64,000 bases of DNA. It comes from an uncultured Comamonadaceae bacterium. GTDB taxonomy: Bacteria > Pseudomonadota > Gammaproteobacteria > Burkholderiales > Burkholderiaceae_C. How positions within the stretch are numbered: the stretch's first letter is position 1; the number at the start of each line of letters is the position of its first letter. Under the pieces are notes generated by a model. The model saw nothing but the letters and a program-made list of their open reading frames with translations. It was not told the origin of the DNA and did not search any database. Both the position numbers and the translations under genes were made by a program. Shown here in pieces: positions 12,913-64,000 of this stretch. The DNA lies in assembly GCA_963933825.1 (NCBI GenBank), contig CAWVVY010000001.1, positions 78,797 through 142,796 of the forward strand, given 5' to 3'.

Positions 12913-12976
12913 TTTGAATGTCAGGGGTATCCAAACCGGGTACCCCATTTTAACTAGTTCAATTAAAGAGAATCGC

Positions 12977-14584
12977 ATGCATAAAGCATTGTTCGCGTGG
13001 CTCAAGTGCGCCGCGTACGCATTGGTTGTGTGCACCAGTGGTGCCGCTCATGCGTTGACTCAAGCCGATGCATTGGCTTTGGTCGATGGTGACAGTGGCG
13101 ACAGAATTGCCGTTTTACAGAGGTTGGCCTCTGGCGACGATACCGTGGCGCATGACGTCATTCGCGCCATGGCGCAAGAACGTCTGCGCATATACAACGG
13201 ACGCGTGTTCATCCTGAATGACACTGTCCTGCAAGACGCGCTGAATGCCCAAGTTGTCGCGGTTACTTCTGAGGTGGAAGAGGTGATGGTCAACAACCGC
13301 TTACGCGGTGCGCTAGAGATCGCCTTGGCTGGGCTTGATATCGTCGGCGCCGATCCACAGCGTCAATTGCAAGCAGCAAGAAGCTTGCAGCGCGCAGCCT
13401 TTGACAGCCCCGAAGACGCGCCCATTGCGTTGTTGCAAAAAGCGCTCGGTCAGCCCGGGCTAGCCCTCGAGACTGAACAAATACTGGCGCTTAGCGTGGC
13501 TGCTGTGGCGCTGGCAAGCGATGATCCTGCTGTGCGTCTGGCTGCGGCCCACAAGCTAGGTGAGGCCAAGCGCCCAGTGGTGCGCCCTCTGCTGATGCAG
13601 CGCCAAGCTATTGAGACCGATGCAGGTGTACAAGCCGCATTAAAAAGCTCGTTGGCCGCGGTTGATCGGGCTCTCGCCATCAGCCGTGCATTGGCGGAGT
13701 TGTTCACGGGTATCAGCTTGGGTTCCATATTGTTGCTGGCTGCACTGGGCTTGGCCATCACTTATGGCCTCATGGGTGTGATCAACATGGCCCATGGTGA
13801 GCTCATCATGGTTGGCGCCTATGCAACGTGGTGGATACAAACCATTTTTAAACAGCAGTTGCCTCAGTATTTCGACGCCTATTTAGTGGCAGCAGTGCCC
13901 ATCGCGTTTTTGGTTGCCGCATTGGTTGGTGTGGTGATGGAGCGCACCGTTATTCGTTATTTATACGGCAGGCCACTGGAGACTTTGTTGGCAACGTGGG
14001 GTATCAGCTTGGTGCTGATGCAGACTGTTCGTACATTATTTGGGGCCCAAAATGTGGGTGTTGAAAATCCTTCATGGATGAGTGGCAACGTCTTGCTCAT
14101 GGGTAACCTGAGCCTGCCGTGGAACCGCATTGTGATTGTCGGGTTCGCGCTGGCGGTGCTGGCTGGCGTGGCGTGGGTCATCTCAAAAACACGCATGGGT
14201 TTGTTCGTCAGAGGTGTGACACAAAACCGCCCCATAGCCGCTTGCATGGGTGTCAACACCGCACGCATTGACACCTACGCCTTTGCACTGGGTTCTGGCG
14301 TGGCGGGTTTGGCGGGTTGTGCACTCAGCCAAATTGGCAACGTGGGTCCTGACTTGGGACAAAACTACATCGTTGATTCGTTCATGGTGGTGGTGCTTGG
14401 CGGCGTTGGTCAGCTCGCAGGAACGGTGTATGCAGCGCTTAGTTTGGGCGTCCTCAATAAATTCATAGAGGACTGGGCTGGTGCTGTTTTGGCCAAAATT
14501 GCGGTGCTTGTTTTCATAATTGTGTTTATTCAAAAACGTCCACAAGGCATGTTTGCCATGAAGGGCCGGAGTGCTGAGTCATGA
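12977..14584 (+). CDS. urtB: Urea ABC transporter permease with a ~240-aa N-terminal extra domain
   Basis: The C-terminal ~290 aa form a LivH-type permease (GVINMAHGE...). The N-terminus has a signal-like peptide and an Ala/Leu-rich helical-repeat region. ATG 12977 was chosen over 12914. Confidence 0.88.
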   Translation: MHKALFAWLKCAAYALVVCTSGAAHALTQADALALVDGDSGDRIAVLQRLASGDDTVAHDVIRAMAQERLRIYNGRVFILNDTVLQDALNAQVVAVTSEVEEVMVNNRLRGALEIALAGLDIVGADPQRQLQAARSLQRAAFDSPEDAPIALLQKALGQPGLALETEQILALSVAAVALASDDPAVRLAAAHKLGEAKRPVVRPLLMQRQAIETDAGVQAALKSSLAAVDRALAISRALAELFTGISLGSILLLAALGLAITYGLMGVINMAHGELIMVGAYATWWIQTIFKQQLPQYFDAYLVAAVPIAFLVAALVGVVMERTVIRYLYGRPLETLLATWGISLVLMQTVRTLFGAQNVGVENPSWMSGNVLLMGNLSLPWNRIVIVGFALAVLAGVAWVISKTRMGLFVRGVTQNRPIAACMGVNTARIDTYAFALGSGVAGLAGCALSQIGNVGPDLGQNYIVDSFMVVVLGGVGQLAGTVYAALSLGVLNKFIEDWAGAVLAKIAVLVFIIVFIQKRPQGMFAMKGRSAES

Positions 14585-15732
14585 GTGCACCTCATTCAAT
14601 ATCTGATTTGGCCCACGATTTACCGGTGCCGGGTCCAGTGCTTACCCGCCGTGGCTGGGGTGTCTTTTGGATGGCCGTTGTGGTGATTGCCGTGCTGGCC
14701 CCTCTGGCCAATTTGGTTGTCCCTGAAGGGCAGCCCTTGCATCTCAGTGGCTACATGGTCGGCCTATTGGGAAAAATCATGTGCTATGCCATTTGTGCGT
14801 TGGCCATTGATTTGATTTGGGGTTACACAGGTATTCTCAGTTTGGGCCACGGTTTGTTTTTTGCATTGGGTGGCTACGTGATGGGCATGTACTTGATGCG
14901 CCAAATTGGTTTGGACGGCAACTACAAAAGCCCGCTACCTGATTTCATGATTTTCTTAGATTGGAAAGCGTTGCCTTGGCACTGGGCGCTGTCTGATAGC
15001 TTGCCCGCAACGCTGGCGCTGGTTGTGTTGGTACCAGCGGTGGTGGCCTATATATTTGGCTACTTTGCTTTTCGCTCGCGCATCAAAGGTGTTTATTTTT
15101 CAATCATCACGCAGGCCTTGACCTTTGCTGCGTTGTTGCTGTTCTTTCGCAACGAAACAGGTTTAGGCGGCAACAACGGCTTTACTGACTTCAAGCGCAT
15201 TGCTGACATACCGCTGGCCACTGCAGGCATGCGCATGTTTTTGTTTGTGCTGACAGGTACTGTACTGTTGGCCTGTTATCTGGGCGCGCGTTGGATGGTG
15301 CGCAGCAAGTTTGGACGCGTGCTGCAAGCTGTGCGTGACAGCGAAAGTCGTTTGATGTTTTGTGGCTACAATCCCTTGCCCTACAAACTGGCTATTTGGA
15401 CGGTATCGGCTGTGATGTGCGGCATTGCTGGCGCCTTGTACGTGCCCCAGGTGGGCATTATCAATCCGAGTGAGTTGAGCACAGCCAACAGCATTGAGAT
15501 GGTGATTTGGGCTGCAGTTGGCGGGCGAGCCACATTAATTGGGCCCATTATTGGCGCATTCATTGTGAACGGTGCCAAATCTTGGTTGACCGTAGCCTTT
15601 CCTGAGTTTTGGCTGTATGTGTTGGGCGCCTTGTTTATTGGTGTGACGTTGTACTTACCACATGGTGTGGTCGGTTTGTGGCGCCAGATGATGGCCAAGT
15701 TTGCTGCAGGCCGGTCAGGGGGTGCGCCATGA
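14581..15732 (+). CDS. urtC: Urea ABC transporter permease
   Basis: LivM-type permease. Its start overlaps the urtB stop (ATGA). Confidence 0.9.
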   Translation: MSAPHSISDLAHDLPVPGPVLTRRGWGVFWMAVVVIAVLAPLANLVVPEGQPLHLSGYMVGLLGKIMCYAICALAIDLIWGYTGILSLGHGLFFALGGYVMGMYLMRQIGLDGNYKSPLPDFMIFLDWKALPWHWALSDSLPATLALVVLVPAVVAYIFGYFAFRSRIKGVYFSIITQALTFAALLLFFRNETGLGGNNGFTDFKRIADIPLATAGMRMFLFVLTGTVLLACYLGARWMVRSKFGRVLQAVRDSESRLMFCGYNPLPYKLAIWTVSAVMCGIAGALYVPQVGIINPSELSTANSIEMVIWAAVGGRATLIGPIIGAFIVNGAKSWLTVAFPEFWLYVLGALFIGVTLYLPHGVVGLWRQMMAKFAAGRSGGAP

Positions 15733-16601
15733 CCCCTGGTTTGATGCAAGACGGTGCGCAGCGGATGGCACACGCTCGCCACAGGCGTTCTAGCGCCACC
15801 GTATCGGGCGACCGAAGTCCTGGCATCGGCAGGGTGCATGTGCCCGGTGAGATCGATGTCACTCACGGGCGCATTTTGTACTTAGAGGATGTGCATGTCA
15901 GTTTTGATGGCTTCAAGGCCATCAACGGCTTGTCATTGGACATTGCGCCTGGTGAATTGCGCTGCATTATTGGCCCGAATGGCGCTGGTAAAACCACCAT
16001 GATGGACATCATTACCGGGAAAACCCGCCCTGACAGAGGCCGTGTTTTTTTGGGCAGCACCATCGATTTATTGCGCTACCGCGAAGCTGATATTGCCGCC
16101 TTGGGCATTGGACGCAAGTTTCAAAAACCTACAGTGTTTGAGCATCTCAGCGTGTTTGAAAATCTCGAGCTTGCCTTGGCCGCCAACAAAAGTGTGCGCA
16201 GCAGTTTGCTATTTCGATTGACACCTCTGCAGCGCGAGCGCTTGGCTGAGGTGTTAATCACCATACAACTGGCCGCACATGCCAAAGACCTAGCCGGCAC
16301 GTTAAGCCACGGACAAAAGCAATGGCTAGAAATTGGCATGTTGTTGATGCAAGAGCCCCGACTGTTGCTGCTTGACGAACCGGTGGCGGGTATGACGGAT
16401 GAAGAAACTGAGCGGACGGCCGAGCTGTTTTTAAGTCTTAAAGGAAAACATTCGCTGGTGGTGGTCGAACACGACATGAACTTTATACGTGCCATAGCCG
16501 ATACCGTAACAGTCTTGTGTGAAGGTGCTGTATTGGCCGAAGGTACGCTAGACCACGTACAAGCAGACCAGCGCGTCATTGATGTGTATTTAGGCCGCTG
16601 A
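15729..16601 (+). CDS. urtD: Urea ABC transporter ATP-binding protein
   Basis: ATG 15729 overlaps the urtC stop. Motifs GPNGAGKTT, LSHGQKQWLEI and LLLLDEPVAG. Confidence 0.9.
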   Translation: MTPGLMQDGAQRMAHARHRRSSATVSGDRSPGIGRVHVPGEIDVTHGRILYLEDVHVSFDGFKAINGLSLDIAPGELRCIIGPNGAGKTTMMDIITGKTRPDRGRVFLGSTIDLLRYREADIAALGIGRKFQKPTVFEHLSVFENLELALAANKSVRSSLLFRLTPLQRERLAEVLITIQLAAHAKDLAGTLSHGQKQWLEIGMLLMQEPRLLLLDEPVAGMTDEETERTAELFLSLKGKHSLVVVEHDMNFIRAIADTVTVLCEGAVLAEGTLDHVQADQRVIDVYLGR

Positions 16602-16649
16602 TCACAGCCATTGCATTGTTGTTATTTTAAATACATAGAAAGCCAGAGC

Positions 16650-17342
16650 ATGCTCGAGGTCCAGTCGATAAACCAGTATTACGGCAGCAGCCATATTTTG
16701 CGCGGACTGAGTCTGCGGGCCGCTGTTGGCGAGGTGACGGTTGTGTTGGGCCGCAATGGGGTGGGTAAGACCACGCTGCTCAAATCACTGATGGGGTTGG
16801 TGCCTATTAAAAGTGGCGATATTGTGTTGAACGGCAAAACCATTACCAAAGATGCGCCTTACGCACGCGCGCGTGCGGGCGTGGGTTATGTGCCACAAGG
16901 AAGAGAGATATTTGCGCGCCTCAGTGTGCGCGACAACCTGCTCATGGGTCTGGCCACGCAAACAGCGACCACGCCCATCCCCGATGAGTTGTTTGAACTG
17001 TTCCCCGTATTGGAGGAGATGTTGAACCGCCGCGGCGGTGATTTGTCTGGGGGGCAGCAACAGCAACTGGCTATTGCCAGGGCTTTGGCGGCCAAGCCCA
17101 AGCTGCTCATTTTGGATGAGCCCACTGAGGGCATTCAGCCCAGCATCATCAAAGACATTGGGCGCGTTATTCGCATGCTGGCTGACCGTGGCGACATGGC
17201 CATTGTGTTGGTTGAGCAATACTATGACTTTGCCCAAGCGTTGGCTGACCGTTACGCGGTGATGGAACGCGGTACGTTTATCGCGCAAGGCCCTGGCCAT
17301 GAAATGGCCGCCAAAGGTGTTCGAGACCTCGTGGCTATCTAG
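16650..17342 (+). CDS. urtE: Urea ABC transporter ATP-binding protein
   Basis: Starting from MLEVQSINQYYG: GRNGVGKTT, LSGGQQQQLAIARAL and LLILDEPTEGIQPSI. Confidence 0.9.
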   Translation: MLEVQSINQYYGSSHILRGLSLRAAVGEVTVVLGRNGVGKTTLLKSLMGLVPIKSGDIVLNGKTITKDAPYARARAGVGYVPQGREIFARLSVRDNLLMGLATQTATTPIPDELFELFPVLEEMLNRRGGDLSGGQQQQLAIARALAAKPKLLILDEPTEGIQPSIIKDIGRVIRMLADRGDMAIVLVEQYYDFAQALADRYAVMERGTFIAQGPGHEMAAKGVRDLVAI

Positions 17343-19333: not shown

Positions 19334-21052
19334 TTAAAACAAAAAGTAGCGCTGCGCCATGGGCAACTTTACCGCCGCCTCACACACCAGCAACTCACCA
19401 TCGGCGCGCACGGTGTAGCGTTGTGGGTCGATCTCCATGATGGGCAGGTAGCTGTTGTGCACCATGTCACGTTTGCTTAAATTTCTGCAATGCTGCACGG
19501 GTACTGTTGCCTTGTGCAACCCGTAGCGCTGTGCAACATCCAGTGCTTGGGCCGCTTGTGACACAAAGCTGACGCTGCTGCGCGTCAGCGATCGGCCATA
19601 GCTGCCAAACATGGGCCTGAGGTGCACGGGTTGTGGCGTGGGTATGGAGGCATTGGGGTCGCCCATAGCGGCCAGCGCGATGCTGCCACCTTTGACCACA
19701 AGGCTTGGCTTCACACCAAAAAAAGCAGGCTTCCAAACCACCAAGTCTGCCATTTTCCCCACCTCTATAGAGCCCACGATGTGCGCCATACCGTGTGCGA
19801 TGGCAGGGTTGATGGTGTATTTGGCAATGTAGCGTTTCACGCGGTGGTTGTCGCTGAGCGCGCTGTCGCCGCTGGCAATGCCGCGTTGCGATTTCATTTT
19901 GTCGGCTGTCTGCCACGTGCGAATAATGACCTCTCCCACGCGCCCCATGGCTTGGCTGTCGCTGCTCATGATGCTGATGGCACCCATGTCGTGGAGTATG
20001 TCTTCGGCGGCAATCGTTTCGCGGCGAATGCGGCTTTCTGCAAAGGCCAAGTCTTCTGGAATGCCCGCATCGAGGTGGTGGCACACCATGAGCATGTCGA
20101 CATGCTCATCCAAGGTGTTGACCGTATAAGGCATGGTGGGGTTGGTTGACGAGGGTAAAAAGTTGGCTTCACCCACCACACGGATGATGTCAGGCGCGTG
20201 TCCGCCGCCGGCGCCTTCGGTGTGAAAGGCGCACAAGGTCCTTCCTTTGGTTGCGGCGATGGTGTCTTCCACAAAGCCTGCCTCGTTCAAGGTGTCACTG
20301 TGTATGGCAATTTGAATGTCATGGTCATCGGCGACGCTTAAACAATTGTCAATTGCCGAGGGTGTGGTACCCCAATCTTCGTGCAACTTAAGCCCCATGG
20401 CGCCAGCGGCGATTTGCTCGATCAGCGCAGGTTGGCGACTGGCATTGCCTTTGCCCATAAAGCCAATGTTCATGGGTAAGCCATCAGCAGCTTGCAGCAT
20501 GCGTTCTATGTGCCAAGGGCCAGGGGTGCAGGTGGTGGCCAAGGTGCCGGTGGCTGGGCCAGTACCGCCTCCCAGCATGGTGGTGATGCCACTGGCCAAT
20601 GCCTCGTCAATTTGTTGTGGGCAAATAAAGTGTATGTGGCTGTCTATGCCGCCAGCCGTGACGATGAAGCCTTCGCAGCTGATGACTTCAGTGCCTGGGC
20701 CGATGATGATGTCTACGCCGTCTTGGGTATCGGGGTTACCTGCTTTGCCAAGCGCCACAATAAGACCGCCCTTTAAGCCTATATCGGTTTTTACGATGCC
20801 CCAGTGATCAATCACCAAAGCATTGGTCATAACGGTATCGACCGCACCCTCTTGGCGGGTGTGTTGGCTTTGGGCCATGCCGTCTCGAATGGTTTTGCCA
20901 CCACCAAACTTGACCTCGTCGCCGTAGCCGCCGGCGCGCAGCGTGTAGTCAGCTTCTACTTCCACCAATAGATTGGTATCCGCCAAGCGCACGCGGTCGC
21001 CAGTTGTAGGTCCAAACATGTCGGCGTAGGCGTGTCGTGCAATAGTGACCAT
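19334..21052 (-). CDS. ureC: Urease alpha subunit
   Basis: 572 aa. Motifs [18 protein letters not shown] and GGGHAPD. Confidence 0.95.
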
Positions 21053-52656: not shown

Positions 52657-52744
52657 GGAAGAGTGGCAGAGTGGTCGATTGCACCGGTCTTGAAAACCGG
52701 CGTCCCGCAAGGGACCGTGAGTTCGAATCTCACCTCTTCCGCCA
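52657..52744 (+). tRNA. tRNA-Ser (anticodon UGA)
   Basis: Acceptor GGAAGAG/CTCTTCC, anticodon arm ACCGG-TC-TTGA-AA-ACCGG region with UGA, long variable arm (cgtcccgcaagggaccg), TTCGAAT T-loop, encoded CCA. 88 nt. Confidence 0.9.
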
Positions 52745-53302
52745 ATGATTAAGCGAATACGCCCTCTATAGGACGTTTTTTGTTTCTACATACCCAAAAA
52801 CATACCCAAGATTTTTGGCTGCTCACGGCTCATTGCCATCGGTCCGCGTATTTGGCTGCTGCCCTTTGGGGTCACGTTGCGATCTGTTTGCCACACCAGT
52901 TTCTGATGTTCTGCCTGCGCAGACCCCACCGTACCCCCACCCCCCATTTTCTCAAATGGGTCCCCCCAGAACACTTGTACAGTGTTCCGCTCAAACGATT
53001 TAAAAATCAGGGGATCTCTGTCTAAGGTTAGACACCCAGCTAGTGTGCGCATGGTGCGCGCCATGGTTTATCGAGGAGGGGGTCAGTTTAAACCTTTAGC
53101 CTTCTTAAGACCGTTTAACCACCAATCGATATAGTGAATCGCCCCGGGTTTCATGGGCGATATTTTCTCAGACTGGGCTTGCTACAGACACACCGAAACC
53201 GGAGTTACGCAGTGGATCCTTAGGGGAAACACTTAAGTCGCCTAAAGCTCAGGTTGATAGAATTTAATCCTCTTAAGATGTTTTCATTGTTGAGGAAATA
53301 TC

Positions 53303-54919
53303 ATGTTTGTGCTCGCTTGGTTATTTGGTATTGCGGCGACTCTGGTCTTTATTGCGATCTTAGTCACCTTTTTAAATCACTTCTATCGTAAATCCAGTCG
53401 TGACCTCGCGATCATTCGTACTGGATTCGGTGGTCAAAAAACCCTCATTTCAGGGGGTTGTTTGGCGTTGCCTTTCCTTCATAAAATTGACGAAATAAAT
53501 TTGCGAACTATTCGAATTGAAGTTCGTCGGATCGCTGAAAAATCGCTGATTACTGAAGATCGCATGCGAGTAGATGCCGAACTTGAGTTCTATGTGCGAG
53601 TACAGCCCACAATTGAAGGTGTCGCTACAGCAGCCCAGTCGCTTGGTTCAAAGGCATTCAATACTGAAGGTATTCGAAACTTGCTCGAAGGTCGATTCAT
53701 TGATGCTGTCCAAGCGATTGCCGCAAGTCTCACCATGGACCAAATCCATGAGAAAAGATCCCAATTTGTTGCTGAAATTTCCGCATTACTCAAAGATAAT
53801 TTGGCTGAAAATGGTGTGATTCTTAGCTCAGTCTCATTGACACGATTGGATCAGACATCATTTTCTTCATTGGATGAGAATAATGCATTTAACTCAGTAG
53901 GAATGCGACGATTAGCCGAAATAATTGCTGTTAACCGAAAAAAGAGAGTCCAGATCGAAGCAGAAGCAGATATTTCTGTTCTCCAAACTCAATTAGATGC
54001 CACCAAGCAACGACTGCATTTAAATCAGCAAGAAGAAGAGGCGCAAATTCGGCAGCGACTGGAACTTGATAAAATCAAAGCCCAGAGTGAGTCCCAGGCT
54101 GCTGAAGCTCGTGAAGTTGCCCAGGCCACTTCTGAATCTGCTCGAATTAGTCGAGAGCAAGAAATTCGGATGCGTGAAATTCAAAAACAACGTGAATTAA
54201 ATAAAATAGAAATAGAATCGCAGCTCAACTCAGCGATGCGGAAAATAGATAGCTCGATAACGTTAGCTGCGAAAAATGCTGAAGAGGCGAGTGCCCAGGC
54301 GGCAGCTGAATTAGCTCGAACAGCCGTTATATTGGCTCAAGAAAAAGTTCAAACTGATCGAGAGCGCGCGGTCGCCGACCGCTCACTTGAGATGGCTCTT
54401 AAGCGTGTGAAAGAAGCTGGTGAAGTCGCTGAAGCAAATGCAGCCTCTGAGACAACGGTGTTATTGAAGCACGCTAAGGCAGCAGCTGAAGCCACGCTCA
54501 CTCGTGCGCATGCAGAAAAAACACGTATGTTGGCTGAGTCCGAGGGGTCGCGTGCAATGATTGATGCTGAAAATGCTCTTAGCACACCTGTGCTAAATAT
54601 GAAGTTGGAGCAATACCGGCTTGACCGATTACCTGACATCATGGCGCAAATGATGAAGCCAGTCGAAAAAATAGACAGCATTCGTATCAACCATGTCAGT
54701 GGCTTTGGTGCGACTAGCGGTTCCGCTACGCTAGGCACTGGAGGTTCCAGTGTTCACGGTAGTGATAAGCCGCCGGTAACACAAGTCATGGACAGCATTT
54801 TAGGAATGGCACTTCAATTGCCCGCGCTAAAAAGTATCGGTGACCAAATTGGTGTCGACTTATCTGGTGCCATTGGCGCCGCTTCCAAGCCGACGCCTAA
54901 TAACGATCAAAAAACCTGA
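53303..54919 (+). CDS. Flotillin-like SPFH/band-7 family protein (YqiK/FloT-like)
   Basis: GAGGA RBS, N-terminal TM helix, SPFH domain, then a long Glu/Ala/Gln-rich coiled coil. 538 aa. Confidence 0.8.
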   Translation: MFVLAWLFGIAATLVFIAILVTFLNHFYRKSSRDLAIIRTGFGGQKTLISGGCLALPFLHKIDEINLRTIRIEVRRIAEKSLITEDRMRVDAELEFYVRVQPTIEGVATAAQSLGSKAFNTEGIRNLLEGRFIDAVQAIAASLTMDQIHEKRSQFVAEISALLKDNLAENGVILSSVSLTRLDQTSFSSLDENNAFNSVGMRRLAEIIAVNRKKRVQIEAEADISVLQTQLDATKQRLHLNQQEEEAQIRQRLELDKIKAQSESQAAEAREVAQATSESARISREQEIRMREIQKQRELNKIEIESQLNSAMRKIDSSITLAAKNAEEASAQAAAELARTAVILAQEKVQTDRERAVADRSLEMALKRVKEAGEVAEANAASETTVLLKHAKAAAEATLTRAHAEKTRMLAESEGSRAMIDAENALSTPVLNMKLEQYRLDRLPDIMAQMMKPVEKIDSIRINHVSGFGATSGSATLGTGGSSVHGSDKPPVTQVMDSILGMALQLPALKSIGDQIGVDLSGAIGAASKPTPNNDQKT

Positions 54920-54993
54920 TTCCTCTTCCACTTAAAACTCAGTTTTCTCCCTGAAACCAACGAGCTTCTCGCTCACTACTTAGGACTAACACC

Positions 54994-56229
54994 ATGAGCT
55001 TTTCACGACGTAAATTCTTGGCCGGAACTGGTACTGCAGGCCTAGCCGTAATGGGCGCGACAATTCCATTTGAGCTGGTTTTGGCACAAGGGTCGCCCAT
55101 TAAGCTTGGCTCAATTTTAGACAATTCGGGAAACCTCGATGCGTATGGAAAACCTATGGTGATGGCTACCACACTGGCGGTTGAAGAGCTTAATGCAGCT
55201 GGTGGTTTGCTAGGCCGAAAAATTGACTTGATTCAATATGACTCACAGTCAAATATGGCACTTTATACAAAATATGCACAGCAACTTACCCGCAGCGATA
55301 ATGTCGATGTGATGCATGGAGGTATTACGTCAGCTTCACGAGAAGCTGTTCGCCAAACGTTGCATCGTGCCAATACCTTGTATTTTTACAACGTACTGTA
55401 CGAAGGTGGGGTATGTGATCGTAATATTGTGTGTACAGGGACCACTCCCGCCCAGGCTGCAGAACCGATTGTTGAAGTTGCCCTCAAGGAATGGGGGAAT
55501 ACGGCATACATACTAGCAGCGGACTATAATTACGGTCAAATTACAGCAAAATGGCTTAAGCACTACATCACTCAAGGTGGTGGAAAAGTATTGCAAACTG
55601 ACTTCTTTCCGCTTGACGTGGCTGACTTTGGCTCGACTATCGCTAAAATTCAGCAAGCAAAACCCAAATTTTTGGTTGCAGCTTTAGTCGGTGGCGCGCA
55701 CATGTCATTCTTTCGCCAATGGGCGGCTACAGGAATGAATAAGAAAATACCCATGTGTTCAACAACATTTGGGGTTGGTAATGAGCATCTCGCGTTATCG
55801 GCAGCAGAAGGTGACGGTATCCTGATAGCGGGTAACTACAGCCAAGAAAATACAAACCCCTCCAACAAAGACTTCCTAGCTAAGTGGGCCAAACGTTTCG
55901 GAGATACGAAGCTCATACATGAAATTGCTGTTTCTCAGTACCAGGGCATCATGCTATGGGCCGAATGCGTTAAGAAGGCCGGATCACTCGACCGTGAAAA
56001 AATGCTGGCAGCGATCGAGTCAGGTGTCAGCATTCAGGGTCCGGGTGGGACGATTACCCTAGAGCCTAAAACACATCATGCTATATTGGACATTAATGTA
56101 ATGGAAGTGAAAAACCAAAAACTCACAATCAAGAAACAATATAAAGCTCGTATGCCATCAGATACACTTCAATTCTGTGATTTGCAGAAAAATCCAAAAG
56201 AAAATAAACAATTCGAAGTTAAAATTTAA
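54994..56229 (+). CDS. Urea/short-chain-amide-type (UrtA/AmiC/FmdD family) ABC substrate-binding protein with a twin-arginine motif
   Basis: MSFSRRKFLAGTG... signal. Collinear with the core UrtA in this window (IKLGSILDNSGNL / IKIGVLHSLSGTM; YNVLYEG / YPVQYEG). Confidence 0.85.
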   Translation: MSFSRRKFLAGTGTAGLAVMGATIPFELVLAQGSPIKLGSILDNSGNLDAYGKPMVMATTLAVEELNAAGGLLGRKIDLIQYDSQSNMALYTKYAQQLTRSDNVDVMHGGITSASREAVRQTLHRANTLYFYNVLYEGGVCDRNIVCTGTTPAQAAEPIVEVALKEWGNTAYILAADYNYGQITAKWLKHYITQGGGKVLQTDFFPLDVADFGSTIAKIQQAKPKFLVAALVGGAHMSFFRQWAATGMNKKIPMCSTTFGVGNEHLALSAAEGDGILIAGNYSQENTNPSNKDFLAKWAKRFGDTKLIHEIAVSQYQGIMLWAECVKKAGSLDREKMLAAIESGVSIQGPGGTITLEPKTHHAILDINVMEVKNQKLTIKKQYKARMPSDTLQFCDLQKNPKENKQFEVKI

Positions 56230-56241
56230 CAATAAATTGTT

Positions 56242-56267
56242 CCCCGGATTGTGTAATCCGGGGTTTT
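56242..56267 (+). terminator. Hairpin + T-run between the binding-protein and permease genes (partial terminator/attenuator)
   Basis: CCCCGGA-ttgtgtaa-TCCGGGG followed by TTTT. Confidence 0.6.
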
Positions 56268-56285
56268 CTATTTAAAAAGGTTGAT

Positions 56286-57152
56286 ATGGATTACGCGGCA
56301 GTTGTTACTTTGGAAATCATCTACATGATTGCCTTTTTGATTCTGACTAGCGCCGGATTAGCTGTCATTTTCGGAATGATGAAAGTCATTAATTTGGCGC
56401 ACGGTGAGTTCGTAATGGTTGGGGGCTACACTACGATCGCTTGTGCAAAAGCAAATATAAATATTTATTTTGCAATGCTCATTATAGCGCCAGTTGTCGT
56501 GGGTATATTAGGCTTATTGGTTGAGAGACTTGTGGTACGTCATCTTTACGGGCGTATGGTTGACACAATGTTAGCAACATGGGGGCTGTCGCTAATGATG
56601 GTCGGGATTGTGACATTTATTTTTGGAAACACAGCGGTCAGTGTACCAGCGCCTATTTCAGGCTATTCAGTCGGTCAGTTCCAAATGGGGGGATATAATT
56701 TGTTCATCATTGTAATTGCCGCATTATTAGTTGTTTCCATGTTTTTGGTAATGCGCTTTACACGACTCGGCCTTGTTGCGCGCGGAGCAATGCAGAGTGC
56801 TGATGTTGCATCCTCGTTGGGCTATGACCCTCAACGAGTGTACATGTGGACATTTGCTGTTGGATCCGCACTATCTGGTCTGGCTGGCGGTGTGCTTGCA
56901 CCACTGACCGGTTTACTGCCTTCCTCTGGTGCCGCTTATGTGGCCAAAGCTTTTATTACCGTCGTTACAGGCGGTGGGGCTTTCATTACCGGAACTTTGT
57001 CGAGTTCAATTATTTTTGGTTCCATCAACCAAGCTGTGTCTTTCGCCTCAACGCCCGTGATAGGGGAAGTCGCTATGCTGGCCATTGCCGTTGTGCTATT
57101 ACGTGTGATGCCGCAAGGTATTACAGGTCGATTTTTTCGTAACGCGACATGA
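56286..57152 (+). CDS. LivH/UrtB-type ABC permease (short form, 288 aa)
   Basis: The KVINLAHGE motif and multiple TM segments. Paralogous to the C-terminal half of the core UrtB. Confidence 0.88.
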   Translation: MDYAAVVTLEIIYMIAFLILTSAGLAVIFGMMKVINLAHGEFVMVGGYTTIACAKANINIYFAMLIIAPVVVGILGLLVERLVVRHLYGRMVDTMLATWGLSLMMVGIVTFIFGNTAVSVPAPISGYSVGQFQMGGYNLFIIVIAALLVVSMFLVMRFTRLGLVARGAMQSADVASSLGYDPQRVYMWTFAVGSALSGLAGGVLAPLTGLLPSSGAAYVAKAFITVVTGGGAFITGTLSSSIIFGSINQAVSFASTPVIGEVAMLAIAVVLLRVMPQGITGRFFRNAT

Positions 57153-58246
57153 TTGGTGACGCCGCCAATTTCTCCAGTGCAGGTCGTACTCAATGGGTCT
57201 GGATAGTTCCAGTAGTTATTCTGTTGTTGGTTTTGCCTGCTGTGTTAGATACGAGCACGCCCACACTGCTTGCTATCTGGGCTTTGTTTGCCTTATCGCT
57301 GGGTTTAATGTGGGGGTATGCAGGTATTCTCAGCTTTGGGCATGCTGCCTATTTTGGTCTCGGAGCCTATACCTACGCGATTACTGCCATGAATTTGGGT
57401 GAGAGCACGGCAGCTTGGATACTGGCTATTCTCCTCCCAGCTTTTGTGGCATCTCTCATTGGCGCAATGATGTTTTACGGTCGCATTAGCGATGTTTACA
57501 TGGGCGTAATCACTTTAGTTTTCTCGTTAATATTAGCAAAATTCATGGGAGCAACAGCTGGAGAAGCCTATCGCATCGGAAGTACTCGTTTAGGTGGGTT
57601 TAATGGTATTCCGGCATTTCCAATTATCAACGTGCCGGGTGACCCTTCTACACCAATTTTCGGGACGCCTTTTTATTATTTAGTCATCTGTTGTTTAGTG
57701 TTTTGCTATCTCATTGCGCGTTGGGTATTGTCTAGCGCTTTCGGTCGAATTTTACTGGGGATCCGCGAAAATGAGGCGCGTATCGAATTACTGGGCTACG
57801 ACGCAGCAGCTTACAAAACAGGTATTTTTTCGCTGTCAGCTGCTATGGCTGGCATGGCCGGTTGTCTTTACGCTAGTTGGGCAGAAATCGTCACACCAGC
57901 ATTGTTTGGGCTAGGGCAATCGGTTGAGGTCATCATCTGGGTAATCGCCGGTGGTCTTGGTACCTTGATGGGGCCAGTAATAGGGGCAGGACTACTCGGG
58001 TCACTCAAGTTATTACTTGGATCTCAAACGTATGTCGATAACTCGCTGGTTATTGGAAGTATTTTGGTATTGGTAGTCCTTGTGCTGCCTCGTGGTTTAT
58101 TGCCCACTTTGACAGGCTGGCGCCGACGACAGGATCACCGTAGTGTTCGTCGTGCTCGAACCAATAGTATGCGCCGACGTGGGGGTGAGACCCGCCGCCC
58201 TCAACAACGCGCTGCTGGCAACAACCAGAATGAGCAGGAGACATGA
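57149..58246 (+). CDS. LivM/UrtC-type ABC permease with an Arg-rich C-terminal tail
   Basis: Start overlaps the upstream stop (ATGA). Multi-TM product paralogous to the core UrtC. The last ~41 aa contain about a dozen Arg. Confidence 0.88.
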   Translation: MIGDAANFSSAGRTQWVWIVPVVILLLVLPAVLDTSTPTLLAIWALFALSLGLMWGYAGILSFGHAAYFGLGAYTYAITAMNLGESTAAWILAILLPAFVASLIGAMMFYGRISDVYMGVITLVFSLILAKFMGATAGEAYRIGSTRLGGFNGIPAFPIINVPGDPSTPIFGTPFYYLVICCLVFCYLIARWVLSSAFGRILLGIRENEARIELLGYDAAAYKTGIFSLSAAMAGMAGCLYASWAEIVTPALFGLGQSVEVIIWVIAGGLGTLMGPVIGAGLLGSLKLLLGSQTYVDNSLVIGSILVLVVLVLPRGLLPTLTGWRRRQDHRSVRRARTNSMRRRGGETRRPQQRAAGNNQNEQET

Positions 58247-58968
58247 GCGAAGTTATTGTCGAAACCCGTGATCTGTCTATGCGGTTTGGTGGTGTACTTG
58301 CCATCAACAATGTAAATTTTAATTTGCATGAGCGAGAAATGCGCTGCCTGATCGGTCCTAATGGTGCGGGTAAAAGTACCTTATTTAAATGCCTGACTGG
58401 GCAACAAAAAATCAATCACAGCAACGGCCACGTGTTCATCCGCGGACAGGATGTCACAGGCTGGCAGCCACATGAAATCGTGCAACTTGGTGTCGGAGTA
58501 AAAACTCAAGTACCTTCTCTCATGAACGGCTTGACAGTCTGGGAGAATCTGTGGCTGGCGGCTCGTCGGATCCATGGCAAACAGGGCGCATCGCATGAGG
58601 TTGACCGAATGGTCATCGAACTAGATTTACAAACCCATTTACGCCGGAATGTAGGAGAACTCGCGCATGGCCAACGTCAGATCGTGGAAATTGGTTTGGT
58701 GCTTTGTCAGCGTCCTAAGCTTGTATTGTTAGATGAACCAGCAGCTGGTATTACCGGAGCGGAAGCTGATCGGTTGGTTGAACTAATTCATAGTATCAAT
58801 CTGCAGGCTGCTGTAGTGGTAGTTGATCATGACATGAATTTTGTCCGAATGCTTGGTGGTTCTGTAACTGTGCTGCACCAGGGAGCAGTGTTGATGGAGG
58901 GCACCGCCGACGCGGTTATGAACAATGAAAAAGTGCGGGAGGTATACATTGGCAACCGGGCGAAATGA
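58243..58968 (+). CDS. LivG/UrtD-type ABC ATP-binding protein
   Basis: GPNGAGKST, LAHGQRQIVEI and LVLLDEPAAG. ATGA overlap with the permease gene. Confidence 0.9.
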   Translation: MSEVIVETRDLSMRFGGVLAINNVNFNLHEREMRCLIGPNGAGKSTLFKCLTGQQKINHSNGHVFIRGQDVTGWQPHEIVQLGVGVKTQVPSLMNGLTVWENLWLAARRIHGKQGASHEVDRMVIELDLQTHLRRNVGELAHGQRQIVEIGLVLCQRPKLVLLDEPAAGITGAEADRLVELIHSINLQAAVVVVDHDMNFVRMLGGSVTVLHQGAVLMEGTADAVMNNEKVREVYIGNRAK

Positions 58969-61472
58969 TCATGGCTGAAAAACTCCTATCTAATCCAGTC
59001 GATTTTGAGCACGCTGATGTGGTGCTCAAGGTATCCGAACTTCACGCCGGCTACGGACATGTTCCCGTTTTGAATGGCGTCAATCTGGAAGTCCGCGAGG
59101 GTGAGGCGGTTGGCGTTGTAGGTCACAACGGCATGGGTAAAACAACGCTGCTAAAAGTTATCATGGGGTTGATTGTGTCTACCGGTGGCCGTATCGAACT
59201 CGATGGAACCGATGCCACAGACTTCGCTGCACATCAGCGCGCACAAATGGGTATTGGCTATGTGCCTCAGGGTCGAGGTATTTTGCCTGGTCTTACCGCA
59301 CTTGAAAACATCCGGATGGCCTGGCGCGAAGACATCGGGGAGACTGAAGAGCAGTCTGTCGAACGCGTAGTCGATCAGTTCCCTCGTTTAGGGGCTTTGC
59401 TGGACCGCAAGGGTGGATCGTTGTCAGGTGGAGAACAGCAGATTCTAGCGCTAGCTCGTGCTCTTGTTCCGAGGCCTTGGCTGCTGCTGCTGGACGAGCC
59501 CAGCGAAGGTATACAGCCATCCATCGTGCAAGAAATTGGAAGTACTTTGTCTAGCTTGCGTGACGAGTTTGGGTTGGCATTGGTCATTGTTGAACAAAAT
59601 TTGGATCTAGTGCTGGATGTGTCGAACCGCGTGGTTGTGTTCGAGCGCGGCCATATCATCAAGGAATTGAAGACTGACGATTTGCGTGGTGGTGGCTTAA
59701 GTGAACTATTGGGAATGGGTTCTGCGCGGATATCGAACCGATCGAATGACGAAGGTAGCAAGCCATTTGAAGCCGTTCATATGCCAAAGCGCCAAAGCGA
59801 GGAACATAACCAATCACAAATCGAAAACACTGGCTACACCGATCTCAGCAGTAAGAGCATTACCAGCCACCAGCTTCGCAACAAAGCTACTTCAATTCAC
59901 AAACGGTCGCATTCAAACGCAATCGATTCAATGGCTAAAGCCACCGAGGGAATCATGTCTACCGTCAAACGTCCTACTGTCGATCAGATGCACACTATCG
60001 TCGAGTCACTACACATGAATATGTCATCGCGTGAAGTGGCCGAGTATTTGGAAATCATGGAAGGCACTTTCCAGTCCTACGACAGGCTGACTCAGTTGCC
60101 GGACAACCTTCCGCCCGTTCGCTATCCGCGTACCCCTGGTATCAAACCTAGTCCTGCTGACAACCCCCTCAACGCCTGGGCAGTCAAGAGCGAAGTTCAC
60201 GGTGCTGTGCATGGGCCGCTGTCTGGCAAGCGCGTGGTACTTAAGGACAATATTTGTCTGGCAGGGGTGCCGCTTATGAATGGTGCGTCGTCGCTTGAAG
60301 GTTATGTGCCCGATCTTGACGCCACGCTTGTCACGCGTATTCTGGACGCAGGGGGTACCATCGTTGGTAAGGCGCATTGCGAGTATTTTTGTTTGTCCGG
60401 CGGCAGCCACACCTGCGCAGCTGGTCCCGTGCACAACCCTTATCGCTACGGTTATTCTGCGGGTGGCTCATCATCGGGTTCAGCTTCGCTTGTAGGCTCC
60501 GGTGAGATTGGTATGGCTATAGGGGGTGACCAAGGTGGATCGATCAGAATGCCTGCGTCTTGGTGTGGCATCTACGGTTTAAAGCCAACCCATGGCTTGG
60601 TGCCCTACACCGGCGTTATGCCAATCGAAGCCACTATCGACCACGCTGGACCTATGACAGCCACAGTAGCTGACAATGCGCTGCTACTTGAAGCCATTGC
60701 CGGTGCCGACGGTTTGGACCCACGGCAGTCCAACGTGCGCGTTGACCGCTACACTGCCGCGCTTGGAAGGGGTGTTTCAGGACTTCGCGTCGGTGTATTG
60801 ACCGAAGGTTTCAACCGCCTCGAAAGCGAGCCCGATGTCGACAAGAAAGTGCATCAAGCTGCTGACCGATTGCGTGCGATGGGTGCAATTGTTGAAGACG
60901 TTTCTGTACCCATGCACATGGATGGCCCGGCTATTTGGACAGCGATTGCAATTGAAGGCCTTCAAGCCCAAATGATGAACGGCAATGGAATGGGCTTTAA
61001 CTGGAAGGGCTTGTACACCACCAGCTTACTGGATGCGCACTCTGCGTGGCGCGCCCGTGCTGATGAGTTGTCACCATCGCTCAAAGTATCCATGATGGCT
61101 GGTGAGTATTTCATTAAAAACTACCGTGGACATTTCTATGCTAAGGCGCAAAATTTAAGCCGAGTACTAGCCAATGCCTACGACGCCGCCTTGTCGCGCT
61201 ATGACTTACTGCTTTTGCCTACGCTGCCGATGAAGGCCACGCCAATTCCGCCATCTAATGCGCCGCTCAAATTGATCGTCCAACGCGCGCTCGAAATGCT
61301 GGGTAATACCTGCCCATTCAACGTAACGGGGCACCCCGCTATGAGTGTGCCTTGCGGCATGTCCAACGGCCTACCTATCGGAATGCAGCTGGTCGCCAAG
61401 CATTGGGACGAGTCCACCATTTATCGCGCTGCCCATGCCTTCGAGCAGTCGGGCGACTGGCGAAATTTTTAA
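58965..61472 (+). CDS. Fusion protein: LivF/UrtE-type ABC ATP-binding domain (aa 1-~251) + low-complexity linker + amidase-signature hydrolase (aa ~331-835)
   Basis: One uninterrupted 835-codon frame. The ATPase part has GHNGMGKTT, LSGGEQQILALARAL and LLLLDEPSEGIQPSI. The amidase part has LKDNI, GGSSSGS and GGSIRMPAS. Confidence 0.8.
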   Translation: MIMAEKLLSNPVDFEHADVVLKVSELHAGYGHVPVLNGVNLEVREGEAVGVVGHNGMGKTTLLKVIMGLIVSTGGRIELDGTDATDFAAHQRAQMGIGYVPQGRGILPGLTALENIRMAWREDIGETEEQSVERVVDQFPRLGALLDRKGGSLSGGEQQILALARALVPRPWLLLLDEPSEGIQPSIVQEIGSTLSSLRDEFGLALVIVEQNLDLVLDVSNRVVVFERGHIIKELKTDDLRGGGLSELLGMGSARISNRSNDEGSKPFEAVHMPKRQSEEHNQSQIENTGYTDLSSKSITSHQLRNKATSIHKRSHSNAIDSMAKATEGIMSTVKRPTVDQMHTIVESLHMNMSSREVAEYLEIMEGTFQSYDRLTQLPDNLPPVRYPRTPGIKPSPADNPLNAWAVKSEVHGAVHGPLSGKRVVLKDNICLAGVPLMNGASSLEGYVPDLDATLVTRILDAGGTIVGKAHCEYFCLSGGSHTCAAGPVHNPYRYGYSAGGSSSGSASLVGSGEIGMAIGGDQGGSIRMPASWCGIYGLKPTHGLVPYTGVMPIEATIDHAGPMTATVADNALLLEAIAGADGLDPRQSNVRVDRYTAALGRGVSGLRVGVLTEGFNRLESEPDVDKKVHQAADRLRAMGAIVEDVSVPMHMDGPAIWTAIAIEGLQAQMMNGNGMGFNWKGLYTTSLLDAHSAWRARADELSPSLKVSMMAGEYFIKNYRGHFYAKAQNLSRVLANAYDAALSRYDLLLLPTLPMKATPIPPSNAPLKLIVQRALEMLGNTCPFNVTGHPAMSVPCGMSNGLPIGMQLVAKHWDESTIYRAAHAFEQSGDWRNF

Positions 61473-61510: not shown

Positions 61511-63298
61511 GTGACTAACAATCCATTTTTATCAAATTGGGTTAAAAGCGGTGCAGACGGAAAGCTGAGACCGCCCGGCTCGGCATCGTTTGTTGCCGGC
61601 CCAACGGATGTGTCTTTACATTTCATGACTATTCCGCAACTGTTGGACCGCACCGTCTCACTCTATGGCTCGCGGGACGCAGCGGTTTTTGTTTCGCAAA
61701 ATCAACGTCTCAGTTGGTATGACCTAAAAAAACAGGCCGACGACATGGCGGCTGCCTTGCTATCTATGGGCATACGGCGTGGTAACCGTGTCGGTATTTG
61801 GGCTCCAAATCGGCTGGAATGGTTGCTGACTCAATTTGCCACGGCCCGTATTGGTGCGGTGCTGGTCAATATAAATCCCGCTTACAAAAGCAGCGAACTC
61901 GAGTACGCCCTTAATAAGGTCCGCTGCCGAATGCTAGTAATGGCGCGCGGCCACAAAAACAATAATTACTTGGACATACTTCGTGAACTGGCACCTGAAA
62001 TTGATAGGCCTGGCCAGGCAGGTGATTTGACATCACTTCGGCTGGAACATCTGAAGCACGTCATCTTGTTAGACGAACTTTCATTGTCTGCACATGACGC
62101 AGCTAAGCTGCCGGTTCCCGTGCGTGCCATGCGTTTTTTTGACTTTCTACGCCAGGCCGGTCCTGCGCACCACGCGCGCTTAAAGGGTTTGTCCGCTGAA
62201 CTTGACCCAGACGAGGCGATCAACATTCAGTTCACCAGCGGCACCACGGGTAACCCGAAGGGGGCAACTTTGTCTCACTTCAATATTGTCAATAACGCTA
62301 GGTTTGCGGCAAAGTCTATGGCGTTGACTCATATTGACCGCATGTGTATACCAGTGCCGCTTTATCACTGCTTTGGTATGGTACTCGGGGTACTTTCATG
62401 CACCGCTGTGGGTGCTGCCATGGTATTCCCAGGAGAAGGATTTGATGCAGCTGCAACCCTCCAGTCTTTACAAAAGCAGCGTTGCACTGCACTGCACGGC
62501 GTTCCGACCATGTTCATCGCCATGTTGGCTGAACCCACGATTAGTAATCTCGACTTTAGTGCTTTAAGAACAGGCATCATGGCCGGAGCGCCGTGTCCTG
62601 TCGAAACTATGCGGGCGGTTATGCGCACGCTAAACATGACCCAAATTACCATTGGTTATGGCATGACCGAAACCTCACCGATTTCTTTTCAGTCTCACAT
62701 ATCCGACCCGGTCGAGCGCCGTGTATCTACTGTCGGCCGCATCCAGCCGCATGTGCAGGCCAAGGTGATTGACGAACATGGACGAATGGTATCAGTCGGA
62801 ACGCCGGGCGAATTGTGTGTTCGAGGTTACCTAGTAATGCGTTCGTATTGGGAAGATGCCGGGCAGACTGCTGAGACAATTGATGAGTCTGGCTGGTTGC
62901 GCACTGGCGACCTAGCAACCATAGATGCCGAAGGTTATTGCAATATCGTCGGTCGCGTTAAGGATATGTTGATTCGCGGCGGCGAAAATGTCTTCCCGCA
63001 AGAAATTGAAAACCTCCTGATGCTGCACCCCAAGGTTCTTGATGCGCAGGTGTTCGGGGTTCCAGATGTTAAATACGGAGAAGAAATCACCGCTTGGTTG
63101 ATCCTTCGACCTGGTCAGTCCGCTGAGCCCGAAGAGTTTGTGGAGTTTTGCCGTGCCCGAATGGCTTATCACAAGGTACCGCGTTATGTGCGTTTTGTGA
63201 GGGAGTTTCCGCTCACAGCCACGGGAAAACCTCAAAAATACCTGATGCGTCAAAGTATGATTACAGAACTCGGTTTACACGTACGACAGACGGCCTGA
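61511..63298 (+). CDS. AMP-dependent acyl-CoA synthetase/ligase (medium-chain, ACSF2-like)
   Basis: GTG start preceded by AGGAA. Motifs IQFTSGTTGNPKGATLSH, GYGMTETSP, TGDLA and ...GKPQK. Confidence 0.88.
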   Translation: MTNNPFLSNWVKSGADGKLRPPGSASFVAGPTDVSLHFMTIPQLLDRTVSLYGSRDAAVFVSQNQRLSWYDLKKQADDMAAALLSMGIRRGNRVGIWAPNRLEWLLTQFATARIGAVLVNINPAYKSSELEYALNKVRCRMLVMARGHKNNNYLDILRELAPEIDRPGQAGDLTSLRLEHLKHVILLDELSLSAHDAAKLPVPVRAMRFFDFLRQAGPAHHARLKGLSAELDPDEAINIQFTSGTTGNPKGATLSHFNIVNNARFAAKSMALTHIDRMCIPVPLYHCFGMVLGVLSCTAVGAAMVFPGEGFDAAATLQSLQKQRCTALHGVPTMFIAMLAEPTISNLDFSALRTGIMAGAPCPVETMRAVMRTLNMTQITIGYGMTETSPISFQSHISDPVERRVSTVGRIQPHVQAKVIDEHGRMVSVGTPGELCVRGYLVMRSYWEDAGQTAETIDESGWLRTGDLATIDAEGYCNIVGRVKDMLIRGGENVFPQEIENLLMLHPKVLDAQVFGVPDVKYGEEITAWLILRPGQSAEPEEFVEFCRARMAYHKVPRYVRFVREFPLTATGKPQKYLMRQSMITELGLHVRQTA

Positions 63299-63321: not shown

Positions 63322-64000
63322 GTGACAGAAGATCAACTGGCTTTTCTGGACGCTTATGCGTTGGCTGGCTTGTTACATAGTAAACAACTGTCACCTGTTG
63401 AAGTCACGCAGATGATGCTGAGTCGTATCGAACGCGTCGACAAGACCTTCCTCTCCTACGCCACAATTACCTATGAAACAGCCCTAGCACAGGCGCGTTT
63501 GGCCGAGGCTATGATCATGCGCCGCCAAATACTCAGCCCTCTTCACGGGGTTCCTATCGCATTGAAGGACCTGTGTTTTACTCAGGGTATAGTCACCGCA
63601 GCCGGAATGCCGATGATGCGCGATTTTGTTCCCGTTTATGATGGAACCGTGGTGAAAAGACTACGAGAAGCAGGCACGGTGCTGCTGGGTAAGCTGACCA
63701 TGACTGAGGCTGCCTTCGCCGACCACCACCCCGACGTACCGCCACCGATTAATCCGTGGCATAGAGACCACTGGTCTGGCGCATCATCAAGCGGTTCCGG
63801 GGTGGCTGTAGCTGCCGGTTTGTGCTTTGCTGCCATTGGTACTGACACAGGTGGTTCGATTCGATTCCCCTCTGCAGCTAATGGCGTAACTGGCCTCAAG
63901 CCGACTTGGGCACGGGTTCCTGTGTACGGTGCTTTCGAATTGGCAGCTTCGTTGGACCACATCGGACCAATGGCTAGAACAGCGATCGACTGCGGTCATA
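63322..64000 (+). CDS. Amidase-signature family hydrolase (GatA-like), N-terminal part; continues beyond window
   Basis: My own translation from GTG 63322: VTEDQLAFLDAY...GVPIALKDL...WSGASSSGSGVAV...GTDTGGSIRFPSAANG...LDHIGPMAR. The frame is open to the window end. It is not in the ORF track because there is no stop. Confidence 0.85.
   Translation, partial: MTEDQLAFLDAYALAGLLHSKQLSPVEVTQMMLSRIERVDKTFLSYATITYETALAQARLAEAMIMRRQILSPLHGVPIALKDLCFTQGIVTAAGMPMMRDFVPVYDGTVVKRLREAGTVLLGKLTMTEAAFADHHPDVPPPINPWHRDHWSGASSSGSGVAVAAGLCFAAIGTDTGGSIRFPSAANGVTGLKPTWARVPVYGAFELAASLDHIGPMARTAIDCGH

Follow-up and report, generated by a model that had tools for sequence, protein, structure and literature searches.

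In a 64,000-nucleotide stretch of DNA from an uncultured Comamonadaceae bacterium (assembly GCA_963933825.1, contig CAWVVY010000001.1, positions 78,797 to 142,796 of the forward strand), hereafter called the window, one open reading frame (ORF) encodes an ATP-binding cassette (ABC) importer ATPase of the UrtE type that is joined in frame, through a low-complexity linker, to a complete amidase. Comparison with related loci confirmed that this fusion is genuine and not an artefact of sequencing or assembly. The same ORF carries a conserved candidate start site for the amidase at the end of the linker, and we rate as slightly better than even the prospect that each importer holds one tethered amidase protomer at its cytoplasmic face while the internal start supplies free protomers.

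The fusion ORF (58965-61472, plus strand) comprises 835 codons without a single in-frame stop, as seen both in the ORF list and in the raw sequence, and Pfam and NCBIfam matches established that it holds an ATPase and an amidase, as an earlier reading of the window (here the original prediction) had claimed. The N-terminal part matches the Pfam family ABC_tran at aa 36-180 (E=4e-32) and contains all of the expected motifs, namely Walker A GHNGMGKT (53), Q-loop VPQ (100), LSGG (153) and Walker B LLLLDE (173), with the LivF-type VEQN (209) replacing the H-loop His. By motifs and Pfam match alike, aa 1-251 belong to the LivF/UrtE branch of nucleotide-binding domains. A canonical UrtE is encoded elsewhere in the window (16611-17342, 243 aa); it aligns with fusion aa 20-251 at 41% identity and ends exactly where the fusion reads ...SELLGM, at aa 251, as originally described. 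The NCBIfam UrtE model TIGR03410 matches the fusion at aa 21-244 with 252.0 bits, under the equivalog cutoff of 285.8, and gives the canonical UrtE 341.5 bits. Because the fusion ATPase scores below this cutoff while the true UrtE of the window passes it, the former appears to be a UrtE paralogue with a different, non-urea specificity.

The C-terminal part is an amidase-signature enzyme. The NCBIfam model NF005565/PRK07235 matches aa 333-834 over model positions 2-505 of 506, with 796 bits against a cutoff of 545; this end-to-end match, which includes the N-terminal region, places the enzyme in the PRK07235/RhAmidase subfamily. The Pfam Amidase match has E=5e-94, and PDB entry 3A1K matches the amidase part over aa 29-498 (E=1e-138). 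The Lys/cis-Ser/Ser triad was correctly predicted to be intact, since LKDN (426), GGSSSGS (500) and GGDQGGSIRMP (520) are all present and the triad lies within the GGSS(S/G)GS-containing signature that defines the family. Both the ATPase motif residues and the triad motifs are invariant across 23 homologues (alignment A1), and the two domains look complete and catalytically competent. A full-length AlphaFold2 (AF2) model built from this shallow 23-sequence alignment had a mean predicted local distance difference test (pLDDT) score of 46; the ATPase alone was modelled with confidence (pLDDT ~70-92) and the amidase poorly. We therefore kept the model out of fold searches and interface reasoning and used it solely as weak support for linker disorder.

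Such an ORF could have arisen artificially in the window from an indel, a chimeric assembly or a stop codon that was missed. However, four independent contigs from different samples encode exactly this 835-aa protein. At 90% identity, the homologues retrieved with the full-length protein form at least 120 clusters, ~820-860 aa long and 72-99% identical, every one with both Pfam domains, and hundreds of independent assemblies (ENA, JGI, NCBI, Logan) show the same architecture. To avoid selecting for the fusion, a species-representative search (one genome per GTDB species) was queried with the amidase part only; the best 80 of its 551 relatives, with amidase identities of 76-93%, formed our locus set, and 75 of them have enough upstream DNA to be usable. 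An in-frame UrtE-like ATPase, open through to the amidase, is found in 72 of the 75. The remaining three (L055, L065 and L076, from one series of metagenome-assembled genomes, MAGs) carry single frameshifts, with both halves intact. The comparison of orthologous loci that the original prediction had proposed, to learn whether they carry a stop codon or the same fusion, thus found the fusion. These three frameshifts would count in favour of an artefact, as would two 50%-identity representatives in which the amidase seems to have been joined to an unrelated N-terminal domain, an OB-fold in P0121 and an HsdM N6-methylase in P0125; neither is likely to be a real alternative fusion, and chimeric assembly is the probable cause. 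Set against the identical contigs, the fused homologues and the fact that the exceptions are frameshifts only, they leave sequencing or assembly error with a practically negligible chance, and we rejected it.

Gene order is likewise the same at every sufficiently flanked locus: a flotillin/SPFH gene, a binding protein with a twin-arginine (Tat) signal, two permeases, a UrtD-like ATPase, the fusion and an acyl-CoA ligase. This order extends to L083, the locus of a 62%-identity representative, and to L086, a distant Burkholderiales-type locus.

The linker in the window is rich in Ser, Ala, Ile, Asn, Glu, Lys, Arg, His and Thr and almost devoid of aromatic and large hydrophobic residues, a broader composition than the Ser, Asn, Lys and His richness first described. 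Across related loci its length ranges from 54 to 122 codons, always differing in whole codons, and its composition follows genomic GC content, being Ala/Pro/Arg/Ser-rich at high GC and Ser/Asn/Lys/His-rich in this 48%-GC linker. In the AF2 model the linker has a pLDDT of 21-27 and no secondary structure. The probability that it is open by chance is 2.1% when its mononucleotides are shuffled and 3.6% from the base composition of the window, close to the ~2% of the original prediction. Its own frame is open in all 75 in-frame linkers, compared with 28/75 and 43/75 for the other two frames. Within the lower-GC Limnohabitans-like group, frame 0 is open at every locus, the alternative frames are open in a minority, and synonymous divergence is ~1.1 per site. 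Since an unconstrained linker would be randomised at a synonymous divergence (dS) of ~1, the open frame appears to be maintained by selection and not by accident, as had been supposed; this argument rests on the dS value and on the alternative-frame control.

Ratios of non-synonymous to synonymous divergence (dN/dS, Nei-Gojobori) in four clades were 0.37-0.63 for the linker and 0.03-0.16 for the two domains (0.03-0.13 for the amidase), the linker values being approximate because the linker alignments are uncertain. This is the pattern expected of a disordered spacer in which length and openness weigh more than sequence, and it indicates weak purifying selection on the linker. The earlier description of the linker as a translated spacer holds in part: at 54-122 codons it is long for an intra-operon spacer, it is under weak purifying selection, and its last ~10 nt contain the putative ribosome-binding site of the amidase. 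BLASTP clustering of the linkers into independent types failed, as low-complexity Ala/Pro-rich sequences chained into one cluster, and no consensus hit for an internal promoter was found in the linker.

The ATG at the junction of linker and amidase is kept in 79 of the 80 loci, and the residue it encodes, Met331, is invariant in alignment A1. Because the NF005565 model matches from aa 333, nearly end to end, Met331 (ATG 59955) is most readily understood as the ancestral first codon of the amidase. The GAGGG that had been noted 4 nt before this ATG is present, and positions -9 to -5 are G-rich in all loci, reading GGGGG, GGAGG, GAGGG, AGGAG or GAGGT. The residues just before the ATG vary by clade (GPGG-I/T, SLGGP, QAGVS, SRGDT, ATEGI), as do those encoded by the core itself among loci (PGG, LGG, AGV, RGD, TEG). 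Rare Gly codons are enriched in the core (GGG+GGA 116/158, compared with 754/4401 in amidase bodies), G occurs in 100%, 97%, 78% and 96% of loci at positions -9, -8, -7 and -6, respectively, and A occupies position -10 in 55%, as against 19% A at linker third positions.

Across loci, the predicted energy of pairing between this site and the anti-Shine-Dalgarno sequence of the 16S 3' end is -8.6 kcal/mol at the median, against an ORF background of -2.3, and the site ranks at a median in the top 0.9% of ORF positions (top 5% in 61/76 loci). In the window the internal site has -6.4 kcal/mol, ahead of the flotillin (-6.2), UrtD-like (-5.1), ligase (-4.3) and binding-protein (-3.9) genes; across loci, the binding-protein gene has a median of -7.4, and the medians of the others lie at about -3 to -4. 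The internal site is thus the strongest predicted Shine-Dalgarno sequence of the cassette, both in the window and across loci. The start of the ATPase domain, on the other hand, has a weak Shine-Dalgarno sequence (-2.5) and an ATG that overlaps the stop codon of the upstream ATPase gene (ATGA). Such an overlap is the usual arrangement for translational coupling, and the ATPase start is consistent with coupled translation. In addition, mRNA structure and GC content relax just downstream of the internal ATG (0 to +60). A conserved start codon with a properly spaced Shine-Dalgarno sequence inside an ORF is what characterises a dual-product gene at the sequence level, and the ORF probably gives rise to both an ATPase-linker-amidase (~90 kDa) and a free amidase (~55 kDa). 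The second product, raised originally as a possibility, is strongly reinforced by the conservation of the ATG and the Shine-Dalgarno-like core at the nucleotide level across lineages.

Within the Burkholderiales, the 80 loci derive from Limnohabitans and other Comamonadaceae, Rubrivivax, Rhizobacter, Methylibium and others; beyond this order they include Alphaproteobacteria (a Bradyrhizobium MAG, Xanthobacteraceae and Stellaceae), gammaproteobacterial MAGs and a SAR324 MAG. Freshwater Limnohabitans-like bacteria carry the cassette in abundance, and a single 831-aa variant of the fusion is present on 228 contigs. The original prediction had named, as a finding that would overturn it, a fusion that is common and already annotated. 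The architecture did prove common, with at least 120 clusters and 72 of 75 loci, but its database labels miss it: the fused proteins, all from MAGs or metagenomes, are called 'amidase', 'ATP-binding cassette domain-containing protein' or 'hypothetical protein'.

When 50%-identity representatives were searched exhaustively using just the amidase part, only one, P0122 (818 aa, 62% amidase identity), proved to join an ABC ATPase to the amidase. Relatives at 57% amidase identity or less are standalone enzymes of ~500 aa. Since fused forms are confined to 62% identity and above and the lower relatives stand alone, the fusion appears to have arisen once. The presumed pre-fusion arrangement (urtE, stop, amidase) was not found around the standalone relatives P0123, P0124, P0126 or P0129, the contigs of P0123 and P0124, the nearest of them, being too short; P0126 has no transporter nearby, and P0129 adjoins MarR and Peripla_BP_5/6 genes, not an ABC system of this kind. 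An extra Peripla_BP_5/6 gene and a MarR regulator also lie beside the cassette or standalone amidase relatives at L083 (1035-2171, 13291-14274) and L088 (6848-7939), and in these distant relatives the extra Peripla_BP_5/6 gene is possibly an AmiC-like sensor. An FmdA_AmdA acetamidase/formamidase gene is found nearby at L083.

In the window, the cassette begins shortly downstream of a tRNA-Ser(tga) gene (52657-52744, plus strand), and the GC content of its first genes (53200-56500) is 0.33-0.50, compared with a window mean of 0.54. The sharing of the cassette at 76-93% amidase identity across proteobacterial classes points to horizontal spread; taken together with the tRNA-Ser adjacency and the lower GC content, it suggests horizontal acquisition, possibly as part of a tRNA-adjacent island.

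The features of the cassette in the window are collected in Table 1. The flotillin gene, on the same strand and separated from the ABC genes by a 75-nt gap, is syntenic in essentially all sufficiently flanked loci (L001-L080, L083, L086), which makes it an unusual conserved partner for an ABC importer. The N-terminus of the binding protein (MSFSRRKFLAG..., window 54994-55100) is of the twin-arginine type, which suggests Tat-dependent export, and its nearest PDB entries are 8TG1, an uncharacterised receptor that is the top match, urea-binding proteins and AmiC; no ligand information for 8TG1 was found in the searchable literature. The terminator-like hairpin that follows this gene could plausibly act as an attenuator through which the binding protein outnumbers the membrane complex. 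The last ~40 aa of the UrtC-like permease form a low-complexity, highly basic tail (58120-58243; RRRQDHRSVRRARTNSMRRRGGETRRPQQRAAGNNQNEQET). Matches of the acyl-CoA ligase are generic. A second amidase gene follows the ligase gene in ~30 Comamonadaceae/Rubrivivax-type loci and is absent from the alpha- and gammaproteobacterial loci; at L084 (10695-12095) it encodes 466 aa from a GTG start and is PRK06169-like but below the cutoff.

Table 1. Features of the fusion ORF and its cassette, in window coordinates.
Feature	Coordinates	Strand	Remarks
Fusion ORF, UrtE-like ABC ATPase + linker + amidase	58965..61472	+	835 aa, ATG start
ABC nucleotide-binding domain, UrtE/LivF type	58965..59717	+	aa 1-251
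Low-complexity linker, probably disordered	59718..59954	+	79 codons (237 nt)
Internal Shine-Dalgarno-like core GAGGGA	59946..59951	+	GAGGG at 59946-59950, 4 nt before ATG
Internal ATG (Met331)	59955..59957	+	apparently ancestral, probable independent amidase start
Amidase-signature enzyme, RhAmidase/PRK07235 subfamily	59955..61472	+	505 aa (aa 331-835)
Flotillin/SPFH gene, first of cassette	53303..54919	+	Pfam Band_7 + Flot
Binding protein, amide/urea (Peripla_BP_5/6) type, twin-arginine signal	54994..56229	+	below urea cutoffs
Terminator-like hairpin	56242..56263	+	9 bp, 6 GC, then T tract; between binding-protein and first permease genes
Permease, UrtB-like	56286..57152	+	
Permease, UrtC-like	57149..58246	+	
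UrtD/LivG-like ATPase, partner nucleotide-binding domain	58243..58968	+	
Acyl-CoA ligase (PRK12583-like), last core gene	61511..63298	+	
Second, separate amidase gene, accessory	63322..64000	+	runs off window end

A role for the cassette as a urea transporter was considered and rejected. All five of its transporter parts score under the curated urea-family cutoffs, and a separate canonical urtABCDE operon in the window (11617-17342, plus strand) passes all NCBIfam urea cutoffs. On both of these grounds, the cassette would be a paralogous Urt/Liv-type importer for some small non-urea amide. The UrtB of the canonical urt operon has an N-terminal extension of ~260 aa, and a match to the Rfam family 5' ureB small RNA (98.7 bits) lies near this operon (20604-20888, plus strand).

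In the mechanism that we propose, the ATPase in the UrtE position of a Urt/Liv-type (HAAT) importer is covalently tethered to an RhAmidase-like amidase by a disordered linker of 54-122 residues. Ribosomes arriving from the upstream ATPase gene through the ATGA overlap would read through the whole ORF to give the ~90 kDa ATPase-linker-amidase, and those loading at the internal Shine-Dalgarno/ATG would make the free ~55 kDa amidase. Because the ATPase pair of the importer is heterodimeric, each transporter would carry exactly one amidase protomer beneath its cytoplasmic face. RhAmidase is a homodimer of ~107 kDa that acts on small aliphatic and aromatic amides (PMC11732141), and a free protomer could plausibly pair with the tethered one to form a complete dimer anchored at the importer, while surplus free amidase would work in the cytosol. 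Within the PRK07235 subfamily, a homodimer is known only for RhAmidase. The need for a free partner would account for the conservation of both the open frame and the internal ribosome-binding site. An imported amide would then be hydrolysed near its point of entry to ammonia and a carboxylic acid, which the adjacent acyl-CoA ligase would activate. From these arrangements we infer the synthesis of both products, dimer completion, the benefit of proximity and the substrate class, and with them a putative physical coupling of uptake to hydrolysis.

Several observations weigh against this interpretation. All carriers seen are MAGs or metagenomes, and a single origin of the fusion means that counts across loci are not independent. 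High-GC linkers are fairly often open by chance, the alternative frames being open in 37-57%. The gene has a comparable dip in mRNA structure at another site (mean z of 1.38, and of at most 1.35 at the internal start), and the Gly encoded at codon -3 is also retained as an amino acid in most lineages, so a hinge residue could account for part of the apparent Shine-Dalgarno signal. The AF2 amidase part is too poor for docking or reasoning about interfaces. Furthermore, a pathway with a small-molecule product would gain little from a single tethered enzyme unless the complexes were clustered. Such clustering could, speculatively, be provided by the flotillin, which might gather the complexes into microdomains where proximity channelling of small molecules could work. 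A full transport metabolon of this kind, in which the tethered protomer and its free partner are clustered by flotillin in a membrane microdomain and hydrolysis and hand-over to the ligase occur before diffusion, strikes us as unlikely.

A genuine fusion could also serve other ends. Loss of the urtE stop might act only as an expression or stoichiometry device that guarantees co-translation of the amidase, with no spatial role and with possible cleavage of the linker. The single evolutionary origin of the fusion, the poor conservation of the linker sequence and the tight translational coupling of the rest of the operon via ATGA overlaps would all agree with this, but the strong independent ribosome-binding site already secures the amidase and makes read-through unnecessary for co-expression. 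Moreover, stops in the linker would then be tolerated, yet none of the 75 linkers has one despite a dS of ~1, and we regard a purely expression-related role as rather doubtful. A still smaller probability attaches to the amidase acting as a regulatory or sensor domain that reports cytoplasmic substrate or product and throttles ATP hydrolysis (trans-inhibition), with tethered catalysis secondary. Regulation through domains added to the C-terminus of importer ATPases is well established, also in the asymmetric NrtC (PMC10945777), only one of the two ATPases carries the fusion, and the strong internal start could supply the bulk of the catalytic enzyme separately. However, known regulatory domains are non-catalytic and sit on short linkers or a hinge helix, whereas the fusion has an intact triad at the end of a hypervariable linker of 54-122 aa that is predicted to be unstructured. 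Strong purifying selection on the triad and on the whole amidase (the dN/dS range given above) fits an active enzyme, although sensing would still be compatible with it. A protomer tethered at the importer and complemented by free amidase remains the reading with the best support.

The closest characterised relative of the amidase, RhAmidase of Rhodococcus sp. N-771 (PDB 3A1K/3A1I), shares the Ser-cisSer-Lys motifs, and the model of its subfamily is matched end to end. RhAmidase occurs unfused in the cytosol, and its gene is linked to nitrile hydratase genes, whereas the fusion amidase has its N-terminus joined to an ABC ATPase and its gene within an importer operon. Two in-frame isoforms arising from an internal start are known for ClpB, IF2 and CheA, and the strong Shine-Dalgarno sequence and ATG inside the fusion ORF would similarly yield a full-length and a C-terminal protein; in the fusion, however, the short form would correspond to the whole ancestral enzyme, to which the long form adds a transporter motor. 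With UrtABCDE and LivF (HAAT) the cassette shares the five-component architecture, the gene order and the LivF-type VEQN in place of the H-loop His, but canonical UrtE ends at ~230-243 aa without a C-terminal domain, and the cassette falls below the urea cutoffs.

Extra domains at the C-terminus of importer ATPases are also present in NrtC/CmpC, MetN, ModC and MalK, and in NrtC, as in the fusion, the add-on domain is carried by only one of the two ATPase subunits (PMC10945777). These add-ons, such as the binding-protein-like regulatory domain of NrtC/CmpC, are non-catalytic sensors of ligands or regulators on short or helical hinges, whereas the domain added in the fusion is a whole catabolic enzyme that hangs from a long disordered linker and retains a conserved translation start. 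In the Pseudomonas aeruginosa amiEBCRS, Methylophilus fmdDEF and Mesorhizobium MeAmi systems, an amide binding protein or ABC importer is encoded beside the hydrolase that consumes the imported amide, the MeAmi operon combining an SBP_bac_5 protein with an FmdA_AmdA amidase (bioRxiv 10.1101/2024.02.22.581678). The binding protein of the cassette is distantly related to AmiC of amiEBCRS. In contrast to the fusion, these systems use other enzyme families (the nitrilase-superfamily AmiE or FmdA_AmdA), keep transporter and enzyme on separate polypeptides and contain neither flotillin nor a CoA ligase.

In the literature that we searched, mostly without subscription journals, nothing relevant was found on an ATPase-amidase fusion, a LivG/acyl-CoA-synthetase fusion or a flotillin-ABC-amidase operon. 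The fusion is thus new to the searched literature, though not new to sequence space. What sets it apart is the combination of a complete first catabolic enzyme, a long disordered tether, attachment to one ATPase subunit, an internal start and a cassette with flotillin and a CoA ligase.

The coupling of transporters to the first enzyme of a pathway ('transport metabolons') is usually argued from weak interactions. A covalent link between transporter and enzyme offers a clean genetic handle on such coupling, and its retention across Beta-, Alpha- and Gammaproteobacteria and SAR324 makes it a test case for channelling. The tethered-plus-free arrangement suggests a way of fixing a dimeric enzyme to a motor that is asymmetric and heterodimeric. 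Should the flotillin-clustered metabolon prove true, it would represent bacterial small-molecule substrate channelling that combines a scaffold with a fused gene and its internal ribosome-binding site. For annotation, the label 'amidase' on proteins of ~830 aa hides a transporter subunit. For the bacteria that carry it, the cassette probably marks an unrecognised route for the use of organic-amide nitrogen and carbon.

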